NCBI GenBank assembly: GCA_016783745.1
Contig: JADHVZ010000006.1
Coordinates: 3,397 to 67,396 of the forward strand
Source of the DNA: Candidatus Omnitrophota bacterium
Lineage (GTDB): Bacteria; Omnitrophota; Gorgyraeia; JAHIPI01
Length of the DNA stretch: 64,000 bases
Direction of reading: 5' to 3'
Of this stretch, positions 2,022 to 37,442 are shown piece by piece. The translations under genes were made by a program, and so were the position numbers. The notes below the pieces were generated by a model. It ran no database searches. It was not told the origin of the DNA and saw only the letters and a program-made list of their open reading frames with translations. Each line of letters starts with the position of its first letter. Positions within the stretch are counted from its first letter, which is position 1.

Positions 2022-2978
2022 CTAATGCGCTATAGTTACGTCCCCTGAGAGTATCCGCTTCTGGATCCCGCTGTCCAATCTTACTACAAGCGCCCCGTCT
2101 TTGTCAACATCAAGGGCGTGTCCCTCTGTTTTCTCGTTATGGCAATGTATCTTTACATGATGGCCTAAAGTTGCCGAATAATCACGCCATTCATTTCGGA
2201 TCTTGCCGAAGCCTTCTTTATTAAAAAGCGCCATATGCTCTTCCAGGCTTTCCAGTATTTTTTTCGTTAAGGCGACCTTGGAGATCTTTCCTTCAGATTC
2301 TTTCGCCAGCGAGGTAGCGGTTTTAGGCAGGTTCCCTGTAGCCGCGCCCACATTTATCCCGATGCCCACGATAACAAAATCCACTCTGTCCTGCTCAGCC
2401 TTCATCTCTGTCAGTATGCCGCAGACCTTTTTCTTTCCTATCATTATATCATTTGGCCATTTGATCATGGCAGAGACACCTGTTATTTCTCTTATGGATG
2501 AGCAGACCGCGACCGCGGCCACGAGCGTTATCTTGGCGACCTCTCGCGGCTCGATATCAGGCCTCAATATACAGGAAAGATAGATGCCGCCATTAGGGGA
2601 TATCCAGTTCCTCCCCTGTCTGCCTTTGCCTTTCTTCTGGCGCTCCGCCACAACTATAGCGCCTTCCTTCTCGCCTTTTTCGGCCAGGCCGTAGGCAGTA
2701 TTATTTGTAGAATCAAGGCTCTCGTATGCCAGGACCTTATTCCCCAGGGACCTGGTAGAGAGCTTATATTGAATTTCCTCAGGGATCAACCGATCGGGAC
2801 GGGCCACTAATTTATACCCCAGATGCGGTACCGCGTCGATCTCATACCCCAGGTGCCGTAAGGTCTGGATATGTTTCCATACGCTGGCCCTTGAGAATCC
2901 CAGCTCCTTGCTTATTTCTTCCCCGGAAACATAATTGTCATCATGCTTCCCGAATATCCTCAGTATCTTCTCATCCAT
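2022..2978 (-). CDS. birA: Bifunctional biotin--[acetyl-CoA-carboxylase] ligase / biotin operon repressor BirA (N-terminal HTH + ligase domain)
   Basis: 318 aa; N-terminal HTH (GEEISKELGFSRASVWKHIQTLRHLGYEI), central GRQGRNWISP motif of biotin protein ligases. Confidence 0.9.
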   Translation of the reverse strand: MDEKILRIFGKHDDNYVSGEEISKELGFSRASVWKHIQTLRHLGYEIDAVPHLGYKLVARPDRLIPEEIQYKLSTRSLGNKVLAYESLDSTNNTAYGLAEKGEKEGAIVVAERQKKGKGRQGRNWISPNGGIYLSCILRPDIEPREVAKITLVAAVAVCSSIREITGVSAMIKWPNDIMIGKKKVCGILTEMKAEQDRVDFVIVGIGINVGAATGNLPKTATSLAKESEGKISKVALTKKILESLEEHMALFNKEGFGKIRNEWRDYSATLGHHVKIHCHNEKTEGHALDVDKDGALVVRLDSGIQKRILSGDVTIAH

Positions 2979-2991
2979 ATTAAAGCCTCCA

Positions 2992-3368
2992 CGTCATTGC
3001 GAGCCCCAAAGGGGCGAAGCAATCTCAAAGATTGTTATACAAGTCAATAAAATCTGGATTGATGCTTTTTATAAGTTGTATTTTCTTCTTCCTGGACCCT
3101 GCCTTGATTTGTTTTTCTCTCTCTATCGCATCATTAATATCGTCAAATACTTCATAATAAACTAATTTATCTACATTGTATCTTTTAGTGAATCCGCCTA
3201 ATAACTTGTGTTTGTGCTCGTAAATTCTTTTTTGCAGATCACTTGAAATACCTGTGTAAATTACAGTATTTCTTTTGTTTGTCATCATGTATATATAACT
3301 TTGACGTTCATCCATTTGTATTGGCTTTGCTGGGATTGCTTCGGTCGCTTCGCGGCCTCGCAATGACG
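2992..3368. mobile_element. Small GIY-YIG gene cassette bounded by ~35-bp imperfect terminal inverted repeats (left 2992-3024 cgtcattgcgagccccaaaggggcgaagcaatc; right 3334-3368 gattgcttcggtcgcttcgcggcctcgcaatgacg)
   Basis: Outer 12 nt (cgtcattgcgag/ctcgcaatgacg) and inner 9 nt (gaagcaatc/gattgcttc) of the two arms are exact reverse complements; they bracket exactly one small GIY-YIG ORF in the birA-uvrB spacer. Confidence 0.5.
3025..3315 (-). CDS. GIY-YIG (URI-domain) nuclease family protein, ~96 aa (ORF track extends to 3363 but the extra N-terminus lies inside the right inverted repeat; start at MDERQ more likely)
   Basis: ...YIYMMTNKRNTVIYTGISSDLQKRIYEHK...YYEVFDDINDAIEREKQIKAGSRKKK matches GIY-(10-11)-YIG and the conserved R/E of small GIY-YIG proteins. 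Confidence 0.75.
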   Translation of the reverse strand: MDERQSYIYMMTNKRNTVIYTGISSDLQKRIYEHKHKLLGGFTKRYNVDKLVYYEVFDDINDAIEREKQIKAGSRKKKIQLIKSINPDFIDLYNNL

Positions 3369-3379
3369 GGAAACAGTTT

Positions 3380-5374
3380 TTACGTCTTCTTCTTTATTGA
3401 CTTCTCCTTCTTATATTTTTTAGTCAGCCTGGTCAGCTGGTCGCGATATACAGCGGCTCTCTCGAATTCCAGATTGCGCGCCGCAAGCTCCATATTGTGT
3501 TCCAGTTCAGAGATAAGCTCGTTAAATTCGTGCTGATCCTCGTTCTCACCCGCAACTTGAGCTACAAACTCCTTCGCTTTGGAATAAGCCTCTATGCCTT
3601 CTCTTATAGCTTTTTTAATGGAAGTGGGCTTGATATTGTTCTTTTTGTTGAATTCAAGCTGCTTCTCTCTCCTCCTGCGCGTCTCATCGATCGTCTTCCT
3701 CATCGAACCTGTTATCCTATCCGCATATAAGATGACCTGGCCGTTCACGTTTCTGGCAGCCCTTCCCGCTAGCTGCGTTAAAGATGTCTGGCTTCGCAGG
3801 AAACCTTCCTTATCAGCATCCAGCACCGCTACTAAAGAGACCTCAGGCAGGTCTATGCCTTCCCTCAAAAGATTTATTCCTACTATGCAGTCGAATTTCT
3901 TAAGACGGAGGTCTCTTATGATCTCTACCCTTTCTATGACATCGATCTCCGAATGGAGGTATTTTACGCGGATCCCCACTTCCTTAAGATATGCTGCCAG
4001 GTCCTCGGACATCCTCTTTGTCAGGGTATTGACGATGACTCTCTCTTTTACCTCCGCCCTCTTCCGCACCTCTTCAATAAGGTCGTCTATCTCATTTTCG
4101 CTGGGTTTTATGATGATATCCGGGTCAAGTAATCCGGTAGGCCTTATGATCTGCTCCGCGACAACAGCGCTTTTGCCAAGTTCATAGGGTGCTGGCGTAG
4201 CTGAGGCAAACACGGTATGCGAGGTGATTTTTTCAAATTCATCGGATTTTAACGGGCGGTTGTCCAGCGCTGAGGGTAATCTGAAACCATACTCCACAAG
4301 CGTAAGCTTGCGGGAACGATCCCCCTCATACATGCCGCGTACCTGCGGAACCGTTACGTGCGACTCGTCTATTATCACAAGAAGATCTTTCGGGAAATAA
4401 TCGATCAGACAATACGGTTTTGACCCCGGAGCCCTGCCTGAAAGATGACGGGAATAGTTTTCAATACCTGAGCAATACCCCAGCTCTTTCAGCATATCTA
4501 TATCATAATTAGTCCTGGACTCAAGCCTCTGGGCCTCAAGAAGCTTATTATTTTCTCTTAATTCCTTCAGCCTGCCGGCGAGCTCTTCTTTTATAGTCAC
4601 TATTGCTTTATTTATCTTATCTTCGGTAGTGACAAAGTGCTTTGCCGGATATATAGCAACCTTATTGATCTCGTTTATAGTCTTACCGGTAAGCGGGTCT
4701 ATCTCTCTAAGCCGTGATATCACATCATCCGATAGCTCCACCCTGATGGCCTTGTTCTCATAAGCCGGAAATATCTCTATCACCTCGCCGCGCGCCCTGA
4801 AGGTACCCCTCGCGAAATCGTAATCATTTCTGGAATAATGGATGTTTACCAGCTTTTTCATTATCTCATCCCGGGGTGTTTTCTCGCCCTTCTCCAGAAA
4901 TACAAGAAGCTCCGCATAGTCTTCGGGCGAACCCAAACCGTATATACAGGATACGCTGGCAACGATTATCACATCGCGCCTTGACATAAGCGAGCTTGTA
5001 GCTGAAAGCCTCAGCTTGTCGATTTCCTTGTTTATGGAAGCGTCTTTCTCAATATAGGTATCGGTGCGGGGAACATACGCCTCAGGCTGGTAATAATCAT
5101 AATAGCTTACAAAATACTCTACGGCGTTCTCTTGAAAAAGCTCTTTGAATTCACTGTAAAGCTGGGCGGCCAGAGTCTTGTTGTGAGAGATGACCAGAGT
5201 CGGCCTGTTGAGGTTATTTATGACGTGGGCAAGCGAAAAAGTCTTTCCCGAACCCGTAACGCCAAGAAGCGTTTGATAGCGGTTTCCTTTTGAGATACTG
5301 TCAGTGAGGGCCTTGATGGCTTTAGGCTGGTCGCCTCTCGGCCTTAAGTCTGTAGTGAGCTTGAATTTGTTCAT
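3380..5374 (-). CDS. uvrB: Excinuclease ABC subunit B
   Basis: 664 aa, [32 protein letters not shown] (Walker A), helicase motifs, C-terminal UvrB/UvrC-interaction coiled coil. Confidence 0.95.
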
Positions 5375-5497
5375 GTTTACGAGTGCCTTTTAAGCAATGT
5401 TGATATGCCCCGAGCGAATCAAAAATTTAGCCTCGAGCAAGCAAAAAATCGGTTTCTAAAAGGACAGTCGTTGTCCGGTGGCACTTACTACGCTCCG

Positions 5498-5528
5498 GTC
5501 CTTCGCTTTGTGAAGCAAAGCGAAGGAC
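5498..5528. repeat. Perfect 13-bp stem / 5-nt loop hairpin (gtccttcgctttg tgaag caaagcgaaggac) in the nadC-uvrB spacer
   Basis: Seen directly; no adjacent U-tract on either strand, so not a canonical intrinsic terminator. Confidence 0.5.
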
Positions 5529-5629
5529 GAGCCGACGCGGTAGCGTCAGGCGAGTTCGACCGTCCCCGATTTTTTGCGCCGCGAGAGGCGTATAAAATTT
5601 TTGTTGAGCAGAGGGGCTATCAACATTGC

Positions 5630-6508
5630 TTATATTACATTCAAAGAAAAATCTATTATCGCGGGGGAATGCGTGAGCGCGCCGATGGAGATCCGGTCCA
5701 CGCCGGTCTTCGCGTATTCCTCTATATTATTGAGGTTGATATTGCCGGATACCTCGATCACAGCCCGCTTCCCTTTTGAGCCGCCCGAATCTCTTATTTT
5801 TATGGCTTCTTTTATCATATCAGGCTTCATGTTATCCAGCATGATGATGTCAGCGCCGGATGAAAGCGCGTCCTGGAACTCAGCTATATTCTTTACCTCT
5901 ACCTCTATCTTTATATTCTTCTGCGCCTTATTTTTGGCGGCCTTTACAGAATCCTCGACAACCGATGACCCCTTTGTCTTTTTCAGCCTCTCGATGATCG
6001 CCAGGTGATTATCCTTTATCAGGACCTGATCATATAGGCCCATCCTGTGGTTTTTTCCGCCGCCTATCTTTACCGCGTATTTCTCAAAATAGCGCAGATT
6101 GGGAGTTGTCTTTCTCGTATCAAATATATCCACTTTATACGGGGCCGCCTTATCGACAAACCTTTTCGTAAGGGTGGCTATACCGCTTAGGCGGTTCAGA
6201 AAATTCAGCACCAGCCGCTCGCCTTTCAGTACCGATGAAGCCTTTCCCTCTATGTAGCAGACGGCCTTACCGTGTTCGATCTCACTTCCCTCGCCAATAT
6301 TCAATTTGACTCTAAGGTCAGCGTCCAGAAACCCGTACACAGCTTCCACAATAGGCAGTCCCGCCACAATACCTTCTGATTTCGCTATGATATCCGCTTT
6401 GATCTTTTCCCCGGGAGGGATCAAAAACGAGGTGGTAAGATCGATCCTGCCTATATCCTCTTCCAGCGCCCTTTTTATAACATCTAAGATCTTTTCTTTT
6501 TTTAACAT
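5630..6508 (-). CDS. nadC: Nicotinate-nucleotide pyrophosphorylase (quinolinate phosphoribosyltransferase)
   Basis: 292 aa; type II PRTase fold motifs (DxRKTxPxxR, IMLDN). Confidence 0.9.
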   Translation of the reverse strand: MLKKEKILDVIKRALEEDIGRIDLTTSFLIPPGEKIKADIIAKSEGIVAGLPIVEAVYGFLDADLRVKLNIGEGSEIEHGKAVCYIEGKASSVLKGERLVLNFLNRLSGIATLTKRFVDKAAPYKVDIFDTRKTTPNLRYFEKYAVKIGGGKNHRMGLYDQVLIKDNHLAIIERLKKTKGSSVVEDSVKAAKNKAQKNIKIEVEVKNIAEFQDALSSGADIIMLDNMKPDMIKEAIKIRDSGGSKGKRAVIEVSGNINLNNIEEYAKTGVDRISIGALTHSPAIIDFSLNVI

Positions 6509-35055: not shown

Positions 35056-37442
35056 TAAATAATGACCAGGCTCTGCTTCTTCCCTGTTAATGGGAAAGAC
35101 AGCTTCAGTATACCGTCTTTGTGCTTAAAATTTATCTCGCTTCCGTCAAGTGAGACACTGTACGGCTTTCGTATTTCTATCAGTATCTCGCAATGACCGC
35201 CCGCGCTTCCGTGCAGGGCAAGCCTCAATTCTCTGTCCGTGCATGAAGCCTTAAGTATCTCAGCCGTGGAATACCTGATCTTCGCCCGCCTGGAAACAGG
35301 CACATTGAGCGGAAGAACATAAGAGCTCCTGTTGGGCATAAGAAGTTTATTTTCCTGCGGTATCGTGGCGGACTTATTTAGACCCGGGATCCGGAAGTTC
35401 AAAGTCACTTCATGCGGTTCGTCGTTGAAATTCGACACAAACAGGAATCCGTATTTTTTATTAGACCTCATCACAGCATGAACATCATTCACTGATGTCT
35501 TTATGCAACGCGGCAGATTAAGGATCTGCATAAAATGGTCTATCAATCCTATTTGATAATCGAGAGTATGCTTCACTGCGAACCCGAGCAAAAGCAATTT
35601 GCCTTTCTTTATCTTCTTAAGGATACCGCACGGTTTTCTGTCTCTGGTCCGCGCTACTACCCGTCTCTTTTTAGACTCAAATACCTTGATATCACCTTCT
35701 ATCAAATAATCTTTTCCGGTGACAAATACCAGATTATCATTTACCGTCTCGCCTATACTGACATCAAATTCTTTTAACAAAGACTCTTCTCTTAAGAGCC
35801 CCATATTTTTATTAGGCGCTGTGGGATTCATGATAAGCGTTCCGCCTCTTTTGACGTACTCGGCTAATTTGAGTTGTGTCGCCTGATCCATATAGTCCAT
35901 TGAAAAGACCCACATGGCGGGAATTTCCTGCAGATCCCTTATCTTCGCTCTTTCAATATCCACCAGATTATAATTATAACCATTGATCATCAGCAGCCTT
36001 GCTATTCCGTCAAAGAAGAAATTATCTCTCGCAAGAGCCATCTGGTCTATGACTGAACCTTTGAGATAACCGGTCTCATAATAAGGCGCATAGAGGCCCA
36101 TTGCAAAATCATAATTTTTCTTTGTATCCGCTATCTGACTTCCGAAGGTCTTCACGAGATCACCGACATCCTCCATAGGCTTGATCTTGGAGTTCTTTTT
36201 TCCCTTACTGTCTATGGGAGCCTGCCATTCATGGTAGGTTCCTCTAAAACCCAATCCCGGCGGATTCAGCCCCCCGCAGAACATATACGCGTTAAGGCCG
36301 TTCAGGCCGTGCCCGATTGAGTATCTCATAAGTAAATTGATATCATTAGGATATATTCTGGGCCGGTCATTCATGCCTCCTACCTGGGCCTCCAAACAGA
36401 CCCTGGGTGCGGTTTTATCGCCTATCATATTCAATCCCTCGGTCATGAGGATAGCGTCATGAAAATTTTCAAAGTTGAGATTTCTCATCTGATACGCGCC
36501 GCCAAAAATAATATGCGGCGTATATTTTATAAAATCCCTGTATTGAAGAACGGTCATCAGCCCCTGATTACCTCTGGCGCATATGTTATAGTCCCAGAAC
36601 ATCGGGATATTGGCTACGAAAGGAAGGTCGATTTTCGCGCCCTTCGCGCGCTTGGATAAAGAATTGTAGTAGCGGGCGTAAAAATCTCTATAGAAATGTA
36701 CCCAGTCCCAGCATCTTCTTACGCCTTCTTCATCCACGTCACCTTTCGGCTGCGGGATCTCCTTAAAGCTCGTATGATTCGTGTAATACCTGTCGTTAAG
36801 GGCGGATAGCTCACCGCCATAAAGCGCCTTCAGGTATTCTCCGTACATCTCGGTCGTAGCCTTATTATAATCCGCGTCACCCATGACCCAATTCATCATG
36901 CCGATCTCGTTATCCAGCTGCACCATTATCACCGGCCCGCCTTTTGTAAAAGAGTTCTTATGGATTATCGGCAGGATCTTCGAATACCACCCGGATACGC
37001 GCTCCTGAAAAACAGGATGCATATAAGAGACCATGGCCTCGTGCGGAACATTCGATCCTTTTCTGTTTTTCGCGCGCGCTTCCTGGTAATTTTCCAGAAA
37101 CCAGGGCGGGGTGCCTTCACCCTTTATCTCCGCGTTAGAAGTAGGGCCTATCCTGGCTATAAGATTAAAGCCGGCGTTTTTGACAAGCTTGATAAAATAT
37201 ATAAGATCCTTTTGAGGAGAAGTCTTACCGGTGAAATCAAACTGGCCTTCTTCATGCTCGTGCCAGGCCCACGGTATGTAAGTGCTTATAGTATTTAATC
37301 CCGTTTCCCTGGCCTTCCTCAGCCTATCCACCCATTTATCCTTCGGTATCCTGAAATAATGGATCTCGCCCGAATAGAGGAAAAAAGGCTCATTATTCAA
37401 CAGGATCTTACCGTCTTTCAATTCGATCTTATTCCTGCCCAT
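35055..37442 (-). CDS. Glycoside hydrolase family 35-like beta-galactosidase
   Basis: 795 aa; N-terminal GEIHYFRIP...GLNTISTYIPWAWHE...FDF...GP...AE...PPWFL and acid/base VQLDNEIG match the GH35 catalytic TIM barrel. Confidence 0.75.
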   Translation of the reverse strand: MGRNKIELKDGKILLNNEPFFLYSGEIHYFRIPKDKWVDRLRKARETGLNTISTYIPWAWHEHEEGQFDFTGKTSPQKDLIYFIKLVKNAGFNLIARIGPTSNAEIKGEGTPPWFLENYQEARAKNRKGSNVPHEAMVSYMHPVFQERVSGWYSKILPIIHKNSFTKGGPVIMVQLDNEIGMMNWVMGDADYNKATTEMYGEYLKALYGGELSALNDRYYTNHTSFKEIPQPKGDVDEEGVRRCWDWVHFYRDFYARYYNSLSKRAKGAKIDLPFVANIPMFWDYNICARGNQGLMTVLQYRDFIKYTPHIIFGGAYQMRNLNFENFHDAILMTEGLNMIGDKTAPRVCLEAQVGGMNDRPRIYPNDINLLMRYSIGHGLNGLNAYMFCGGLNPPGLGFRGTYHEWQAPIDSKGKKNSKIKPMEDVGDLVKTFGSQIADTKKNYDFAMGLYAPYYETGYLKGSVIDQMALARDNFFFDGIARLLMINGYNYNLVDIERAKIRDLQEIPAMWVFSMDYMDQATQLKLAEYVKRGGTLIMNPTAPNKNMGLLREESLLKEFDVSIGETVNDNLVFVTGKDYLIEGDIKVFESKKRRVVARTRDRKPCGILKKIKKGKLLLLGFAVKHTLDYQIGLIDHFMQILNLPRCIKTSVNDVHAVMRSNKKYGFLFVSNFNDEPHEVTLNFRIPGLNKSATIPQENKLLMPNRSSYVLPLNVPVSRRAKIRYSTAEILKASCTDRELRLALHGSAGGHCEILIEIRKPYSVSLDGSEINFKHKDGILKLSFPLTGKKQSLVII

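Follow-up and report, generated by a model that had tools for sequence, protein, structure and literature searches.

The window analysed here, a 64,000-nucleotide stretch of a Candidatus Omnitrophota genome (assembly GCA_016783745.1, contig JADHVZ010000006.1, positions 3,397 to 67,396), carries between uvrB and birA a compact cassette in which one small GIY-YIG gene is enclosed by two inverted hairpin repeats. All three genes lie on the minus strand, with uvrB at 3380-5374, the small gene at 3025-3315 and birA at 2022-2978. Reading from uvrB, an 11-nt flank (3369-3379, minus strand) separates its stop codon from the CGTC tag of the upstream hairpin (3334-3368, minus strand), and an 18-nt spacer (3316-3333, minus strand) leads from that hairpin to the start codon of the small gene (ATG at 3315-3313). 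The downstream hairpin (2992-3024, plus strand) adjoins the stop codon (TGA at 3027-3025), and its tag lies 13 nt from the birA start codon (2979-2991, plus strand), where the preliminary description of this DNA had given 14 bp. The gene occurs once in the window, encodes 96 amino acids (aa) and matches PF01541 with E 6.9e-18, in agreement with the small open reading frame (ORF) first proposed for this spacer. No sigma-70-like promoter was detected in 2800-3600, such that the gene is probably transcribed by read-through from uvrB together with its neighbours. The cassette very probably represents a gene of the Ssn family, encoding a site-specific single-stranded DNA (ssDNA) endonuclease, set between two inverted copies of its cognate repeat, a CGTC-tagged repetitive extragenic palindromic (REP) hairpin of the type termed Ssn-related motif (SRM).

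Inspection of the two arms, each of ~34 nt and each read on its own strand, reveals the common form CGTCATTGCGAG...CGAAGCAATC. The outer 12-nt and inner 9-nt words noted in the preliminary description are both exact: CGTCATTGCGAG is found at 2992-3003 (plus) and 3357-3368 (minus), and GAAGCAATC at 3016-3024 (plus) and 3334-3342 (minus). The arms are genuine, as TCATTGCGAG-N5-30-GAAGCAATC, used as a composite pattern, is present twice in the 64-kb window and absent from all 100 shuffles. A covariance model trained on 60 related arms and run over the window unfiltered recovers both, at 2988-3029 on the plus strand (53.5 bits, E 3.5e-11) and at 3329-3372 on the minus strand (48.3 bits, E 6.8e-10). 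A one-mismatch copy of the 12-mer at 35187-35198 lacks the GAAGCAATC half and is missed by the arm model, and it is therefore taken as chance. Searches of the arms against Rfam returned no family, either across the whole window at the gathering threshold or within 2900-3460 at E up to 10. In published text, 10-mers of the repeat matched unrelated primers only, and longer stretches matched nothing.

The arms are more than two halves of a long inverted repeat. Their central 13-15 nt are unlike one another (GCCCCaaaGGGGC versus GGCCGCgaaGCGACC), yet each is self-complementary, and each is framed by an outer ATTGC/GCAAT stem, so that every arm constitutes a two-tier hairpin on its own. The downstream copy has its CGTC tag at 2992-2995, continues through the ATTGC/GCAAT stem and a GAG//CGAA internal loop, and is capped by the apical hairpin GCCCCaaaGGGGC; the plus strand is the active one, the tag faces away from the cassette, and its DNA fold reaches -8.1 kcal/mol (z -3.2). 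The upstream copy shares this architecture, with its tag at 3368-3365 on the minus strand and an apical hairpin, GGCCGCgaaGCGACC, that contains GCGAAGC. As read, the ends of the arms are CGTC-ATTGC...GCAAT-CTCA and CGTC-ATTGC...GCAAT-CCCA. As a separate observation, four independent short-read contigs of the same organism that carry an identical gene (Logan assemblies L123-L126) all stop inside the downstream hairpin, within their last 70 nt, which suggests that the hairpin or the repeat causes assembly breaks.

Across 592 instances (420 distinct sequences), the architecture of the repeat is constant and comprises the CGTC tag, a 5-bp stem, the GAG//(C)GAA internal loop and an apical hairpin. 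The 5-bp stem covaries, appearing as ATTAC/GTAAT, ATCGC/GCGAT or ACTGC/GCAGT, and the apical hairpin is highly variable in both sequence and length, such that the arms range from 20 to 52 nt overall. The apex is most often GCGNAGC, with all four bases seen at N, and the apical loops are mostly GNA triloops; we take this apex to be the GNA-triloop known as a stable DNA mini-hairpin. For 60 aligned gene-flanking arms, 85.5% of cells are paired in the named structure, compared with 71% for shuffles, none of the 500 attaining the observed value, and no more than 53.5% for slid partners, and two-sided changes are present in 9 of the 11 pairs. Within the same alignment, conservation of the GTC before the stem is 90% or higher, and the C directly after the stem never varies. 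These positions mirror those found critical for cutting and binding by Chenal et al. 2025 (Nat Commun 16:2388; PMC11893778), who described the Ssn system.

The protein itself points to the same family. As had been suspected, the N-terminus of the originally listed ORF is over-extended: a 112-aa frame starting at TTG reads through the right arm, and the PF01541 match covers residues 22-95 of that frame, or 6-79 of the 96-aa protein. More than 8000 homologous matches were scored, the best non-identical ones being 67-79% identical, and most are 94-96 aa long, in keeping with a start at the ATG at 3315. Residues Y9, Y20, R30, H34, E67 and N86 are intact in the window protein, and each is at least 97% conserved among 120 homologues. 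No second Pfam domain was found. The spacing of Y9, Y20 and E67 is identical to that of the catalytic Y6, Y17 and E64 of the 94-aa SsnA of N. meningitidis. Searches of NCBIfam, PADLOC and PHROGs gave sub-threshold or marginal matches throughout, including a PHROG "homing endonuclease" at E 9e-4. Among solved structures, the matches were to UPF0213 proteins (1zg2 at E 3e-4, 1ywl at E 0.05) and UvrC, all weak, and no Ssn structure was present. The preliminary description had likened the protein to a homing endonuclease; this does not hold, as the 96-aa protein is a single domain without a DNA-binding extension and scores 19.8 bits against the group I intron endonuclease model TIGR01453 (cut-off 56.05), with the match confined to residues 6-38.

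A bridge to the Ssn family was obtained through the repeat bound by SsnA, known as NTS. Scanning for two canonical NTS halves (CGTCATTCCCGCGAAGGCGGGAATCCAG) ~350 nt apart returned nine loci, four of which enclose a GIY-YIG ORF of 97-103 aa. Each of the four encoded proteins aligns with almost the whole window protein at 39-41% identity (E 4e-30 to 2e-24), and one of them is 45-58% identical to many window-type proteins, as close as it is to other NTS-flanked proteins.

The association between gene and repeat extends well beyond the window. A scan of genome collections returned 80 homologous loci (629 kb in total) encoding proteins 54-75% identical to that of the window, from more than 15 phyla. 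Their hosts include Omnitrophota, Planctomycetota, Aminicenantes, Actinomycetota, Nitrospirae, Chloroflexi, Spirochaetes, Bacteroidota, Firmicutes, groups of the candidate phyla radiation (CPR), Cyanobacteria, Elusimicrobia, several classes of Proteobacteria, Legionella and Rickettsiaceae. Searched with a tolerant arm pattern, the 629 kb yield 311 arms, against 4 once the sequence is shuffled. The layout of the window, arm(+)-gene-arm(-) with the nearest arms within 150 bp, is present in 44 of the 80 loci. An upstream plus-strand arm accompanies 57 of the genes at a median of 28 nt from the ATG, and a downstream minus-strand arm accompanies 52 at a median of 6 nt, adjoining the stop codon in 15 cases as it does in the window. 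In several homologues that are over-annotated at the N-terminus, the arm is translated as part of the protein (for example RHCEEVATDEAIP). Where this arm is missing, homologues bear other CGTC hairpins in an unchanged layout (L181, L187 and L206), indicating that repeat type co-varies with the gene.

Two further observations concern the arrangement of such units. Tandem arm-gene-arm units, in which two GIY-YIG copies ~430-640 bp apart each possess their own arms, are found at L146 5001-5832, L200 4205-5505 and L193 4328-5450, which suggests that some genomes have amplified whole cassettes locally. In a Planctomycetota contig (L138), a canonical NTS-type repeat (801-828, one mismatch allowed) lies ~270 bp downstream of a GIY-YIG gene with ATTGCGAG-type arms, so that two hairpin classes occur within one contig.

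The hairpin is also abundant without the gene. Further copies of the terminal word, sought elsewhere as the preliminary description had advised, recur massively: in viral contigs, an exact-pattern scan found at least 184 matches in at least 120 loci, the commonest form being the 26-mer GTCATTGCGAGCGAAGCGAAGCAATC. Of the 120 hairpin-bearing viral loci listed, a single one holds a GIY-YIG homologue, and that homologue is not adjacent to the repeat; peptide patterns specific to close relatives of the window protein found none in viral contigs. The arms thus belong to a widespread, dispersed repeat and are not ends specific to the cassette. That is to say, the idea of terminal inverted repeats stands insofar as a discrete single-gene cassette lies within inverted repeats, and falls insofar as it implied simple, cassette-specific termini, given that each arm is a hairpin found mostly where there is no gene. 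In a sample drawn independently of the gene, gene-less doublets are arranged with tags outward in 53 cases, with tags inward in 7 and in tandem in 12, with a median spacer of 22 bp. Such doublets present the geometry of the cassette minus the gene, which would suit either miniature derivatives or vacant target sites and is proof of neither. Gene-less head-to-tail arrays of 4-5 hairpins with a period of 33-43 bp also occur (L046 2695-2818, L020 28-101 and L163 4561-4758) and are rarer than tags-outward doublets.

The uvrB-birA junction of the window was compared with that of four BirA relatives, in Omnitrophota contigs L216 to L219. The empty sites anticipated in the preliminary description are present: uvrB and birA are 3 nt apart in L216 (BirA 78% identical) and overlap in L217 (73%), and the cassette is absent from both. 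L219 (73%) carries an unrelated 118-bp spacer without arms. L218 (76%) possesses the cassette with both arms at the same junction (3629-4005; GCA_964645565.1, CAZYBX010000036.1). Its gene is probably a decaying pseudogene, as codon 7 has changed from TAT to TAA and the conserved Y46 and Y53 are substituted; both hairpins are intact. Between the window and L218, the orthologous arms have diverged in their apical stems by compensatory substitutions. The comparison supports the cassette as an element inserted at the uvrB-birA junction. Divergence between the two cassettes (84% nt and 77% aa identity) is similar to that of the host genes (BirA 76%, UvrB 81%), indicating long residence rather than recent movement. 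The empty genome L216 is as close to each occupied genome as the occupied ones are to each other, so that the cassette must have been gained once and cleanly lost once, or else gained twice at this site. A target-site duplication was not definable, as the flanks of occupied and empty sites have diverged too far. Separately, the L219 spacer (3883-4000) contains other G/C-rich hairpins (cccttctcccc...ggggagaagg and cccctaggggaagg), possibly another small repeat family at the same junction.

These features were set against the Ssn system of Chenal et al. 2025 (PMC11893778). The SsnA of N. meningitidis is a 94-aa single-domain GIY-YIG protein (CDD cd10448) that binds the NTS hairpin (CGTCATTCCCGCGMAVGCGGGAATCYRG) as ssDNA only, and not as dsDNA, RNA or the reverse strand. 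It cleaves a few nucleotides upstream of the repeat, and this activity is lost with each of the substitutions Y6A, Y17A and E64A. In NTS, cutting is governed by the three nucleotides ahead of the palindrome and binding by the C behind it. Three further homologues cut their own repeats, such that ssDNA-only, strand-specific binding and upstream cleavage are documented for four SsnA homologues. In that study, the SRM lies near 71% of Ssn homologues and on both sides of 42%, and in Neisseria the system restricts incoming ssDNA and lowers transformation by NTS-bearing DNA (PMC11893778). The window shares with this family a single GIY-YIG domain of ~94-96 aa with equally spaced catalytic Tyr, Tyr and Glu, and a gene between inverted hairpins that start with (C)GTC and an AT stem and end with C after the stem. 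Also shared are a repeat that is often gene-less, a wide phylogenetic spread with high protein conservation, and co-variation of nuclease and repeat.

The repeat also resembles a class described before any enzyme was connected to it. CGTC-tagged REPs carry an unpaired CGTC, a stem opening with AT and a tail resembling CCA, are found chiefly in inverted dimers and "apparently lack a dedicated transposase" (Di Nocera, De Gregorio and Rocco 2013, BMC Genomics 14:522; PMC3733652). The window repeat likewise has an unpaired CGTC at one end, an AT stem start and a short C-rich tail (CTCA and CCCA here, CCA there), and it too is found mostly as paired inverted units in many phyla. In contrast, the four CGTC-tagged families are described in the text of that paper with continuous 8-9-bp stems and loops of 4-5 nt, compared with the 5-bp stem, internal loop and variable apical hairpin of the window. 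The gene tied to the window repeat, as in Chenal et al. 2025, is a GIY-YIG nuclease.

Several observations weigh against assignment to the Ssn system. Neither the published SRM string, HGTCWYN(0-2)YYVSBRHN(0-5)WNVSBRGN(0-2)RNCYNB, nor the NTS consensus gives a regular-expression match in the window or its arms, and both also miss the common 26-nt and 32-nt ATTGCGAG...GAAGCAAT forms, although a canonical NTS control matches. The structures differ as well: the window arm reads ATTGC-GAG-[variable stem-loop]-(C)GAA-GCAAT and NTS reads ATTCCCGC-loop-GCGGGAAT, so that the window arm has a 5-bp stem, internal loop and variable apical stem where NTS has a continuous stem of ~8 bp with a short loop. 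Placement in the family was reached through the NTS-flanked bridge proteins rather than through SsnA (CAX49033.1) or CDD cd10448 directly, and activity of the window-subtype enzyme is drawn from SsnA homologues only. The covariance model finds no third arm in the window (next match E 3.6), which leaves two hairpins only within these 64 kb of the Omnitrophota metagenome-assembled genome; a genome-wide repeat population like that of Neisseria would be hypothetical for this organism. Further differences from known Ssn systems are the ~40% identity of the protein to NTS-flanked proteins and a host that is neither a repeat-rich symbiont nor a pathogen. No ATTGC-type motif appears in the main text of Chenal et al. 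2025. Since size, residues, similarity to NTS-flanked proteins and arm features all fit and the SRM and NTS strings miss, we regard the window gene as an Ssn-family member with a repeat class that these strings leave uncovered. This assignment joins what is directly observed, namely the anatomy of the locus, a covarying hairpin, a layout kept across phyla, homology to NTS-flanked proteins and the presence or absence of the cassette at one site.

If the behaviour of the SsnA homologues carries over, the window protein would bind the folded hairpin only in ssDNA and only on the strand reading 5'-CGTC-stem. Binding would require both the stem and the C directly behind it, and cleavage would fall 5' of the tag at a distance of a few nucleotides. 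With both CGTC tags facing outward, cuts are predicted just outside the cassette, one per strand, with the flanks at 2979-2991 (plus) and 3369-3379 (minus) as putative cleavage zones by analogy with SsnA biochemistry. The unit probably entered the tightly coupled uvrB-birA junction in an ancestor of this Omnitrophota lineage and is now a resident single copy.

A second explanation, which we consider possible though doubtful, is that the unit is an autonomous selfish mobile element, resembling an insertion sequence (IS) or a homing element and analogous to RAYT/REPIN, whose nuclease cuts its own terminal hairpins or gene-less doublets serving as empty target sites; arm-gene-arm would be copied or moved whole, leaving the gene-less doublets as miniature derivatives. 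A junction that is filled in the window and in L218 and vacant in L216, L217 and L219, with L216 equidistant, would fit such behaviour, as would homologues of 54-75% identity across so many phyla, the many copies at contig ends, the tandem cassettes of L146, L200 and L193 and the outward orientation shared by most gene-less doublets. The comparison with REP/REPIN-RAYT systems, which are related to IS200/IS605, is close in layout: both have a single-copy nuclease gene between inverted hairpins and a repeat dispersed as singlets and inverted doublets, and both recognise a folded ssDNA hairpin and cleave nearby, the latter being predicted by analogy for the window. The resemblance is in layout only, as RAYTs are HUH/Y1 enzymes with a covalent intermediate and a GTAG tag, compared with a hydrolytic GIY-YIG enzyme and a CGTC tag here, and neither RAYT nor Ssn has a demonstrated full transposition cycle. 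GIY-YIG enzymes act as hydrolytic nucleases and are not known to perform strand transfer, which speaks against mobility. So do the presence of one gene copy and two hairpins in 64 kb without a definable target-site duplication, and the divergence between the window and L218 cassettes, which tracks that of the host genes (76-81% aa) and fits long vertical residence, the L218 copy being in decay. The authors of the Ssn study likened NTS-ssnA-NTS to an insertion sequence and to RAYT/REP and offered mobility as a hypothesis, with transposition or homing shown for no Ssn cassette (PMC11893778). Of the mobile or selfish cassette envisaged in the preliminary description, the insertion relative to relatives thus stands, and mobility shares the hypothetical status it has for the Ssn/SRM system at large. 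We accordingly hold only tentatively that arm-ssn-arm could be mobile by way of a hydrolytic GIY-YIG ssDNA nuclease, with tags-outward doublets as non-autonomous derivatives or empty targets. Were this true, the ATTGCGAG...GAAGCAAT hairpin, hosted by Omnitrophota, CPR, Cyanobacteria, Bacteroidota, Chloroflexi, Spirochaetes, Proteobacteria and viral contigs, would form a separate, very widespread specificity class missed by the SRM search, and the nuclease would supply CGTC-type REPs with the enzyme they have lacked and give REP-like repeats a new, non-HUH way to spread.

The hairpins might instead act in RNA, as stabilisers or attenuators of a uvrB-ssn-birA message with a regulatory link such as autoregulation, and not as a DNA substrate. 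As the three genes share one strand and 2800-3600 holds no promoter-like site, transcription probably covers both hairpins, and many REPs have been argued to be transcribed (PMC3733652). This role is nevertheless improbable. The strand-asymmetric motif, with its CGTC tag and C tail, has opposite orientations at the two ends, such that one transcript carries one sense and one antisense copy. A run of T follows neither hairpin, no Rfam family matches, and the preferred GNA triloops are typical of stable DNA mini-hairpins. SsnA, moreover, does not bind RNA of the same sequence (PMC11893778). Least credible of all is an ordinary housekeeping gene of the UPF0213/YhbQ type, or a classical GIY-YIG homing endonuclease, next to which the repeats would be coincidental. 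The weak similarity to 1zg2 and 1ywl and the faint group I intron endonuclease match lean that way, and homing endonucleases of the I-TevI type do share the GIY-YIG catalytic domain and, plausibly, a selfish lifestyle. Those enzymes, in contrast, exceed 200 aa, contain linker and DNA-binding domains, have no flanking hairpins and cut dsDNA at intron-less or gene-less alleles. The 96-aa single-domain window protein has no I-TevI-type DNA-binding domain, and its similarity to NTS-flanked proteins is far stronger than the matches just named. The reading is further contradicted by the recurrence of the repeats, which surround the homologue at 44 of the 80 loci when shuffling of the 629 kb leaves 4 arms by chance, and by the empty sites, where close relatives lack the gene at the same position.

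One other structured element lies nearby, in the nadC-uvrB spacer. Here, 5391-5632 forms an imperfect palindrome of ~240 nt (DNA fold ~-70 kcal/mol) with 38-nt outer arms that are 79% complementary, perfect 12-nt inner arms and, at its centre, a hairpin of 13 perfect base pairs (5498-5528). That central hairpin had been proposed as a solo remnant of the cassette; the arm model does not match it, and as the centre of a separate palindromic element it was rejected as a solo arm. The GCAATGTTGATA-like ends of the palindrome are shared with the L216 spacer, the spacer itself is essentially absent in L217 and L219, and no Rfam family matches. The element could be an insertion resembling the miniature transposable elements with inverted repeats known as MITEs, or a structured uvrB leader. 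Elsewhere, in two assemblies of the same organism as the window, groEL appears as two fragments (233 and 300 aa) in L121 8516-10170 and as one 546-aa gene in L122 4599-6239, so that the split in L121 is probably an assembly or frameshift artefact.

As a member of the Ssn family, the cassette is explained by the system published in 2025 and requires no new category of element. What the window adds beyond the main text of Chenal et al. 2025 is a hairpin class outside the SRM string, together with occupied and empty alleles of the uvrB-birA junction. A second major Ssn hairpin class is thereby documented, in which the apical stem-loop is tolerant and expandable. Because the SRM search string misses this class, the published figure of 42-71% of Ssn genes with flanking repeats is probably an underestimate, and the catalogue of enzyme-site pairs available for ssDNA tools is correspondingly larger. 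The biological role of the unit could be to limit recombination of hairpin-bearing ssDNA, or it could be selfish spread. For the question of whether the whole unit inserts and excises, a hypothesis in Chenal et al. 2025, the occupied and empty junctions provide natural alleles. Finally, the 2013 statement that CGTC-tagged REPs have no dedicated enzyme can now be tied to a specific gene family, in lineages far from Neisseria.

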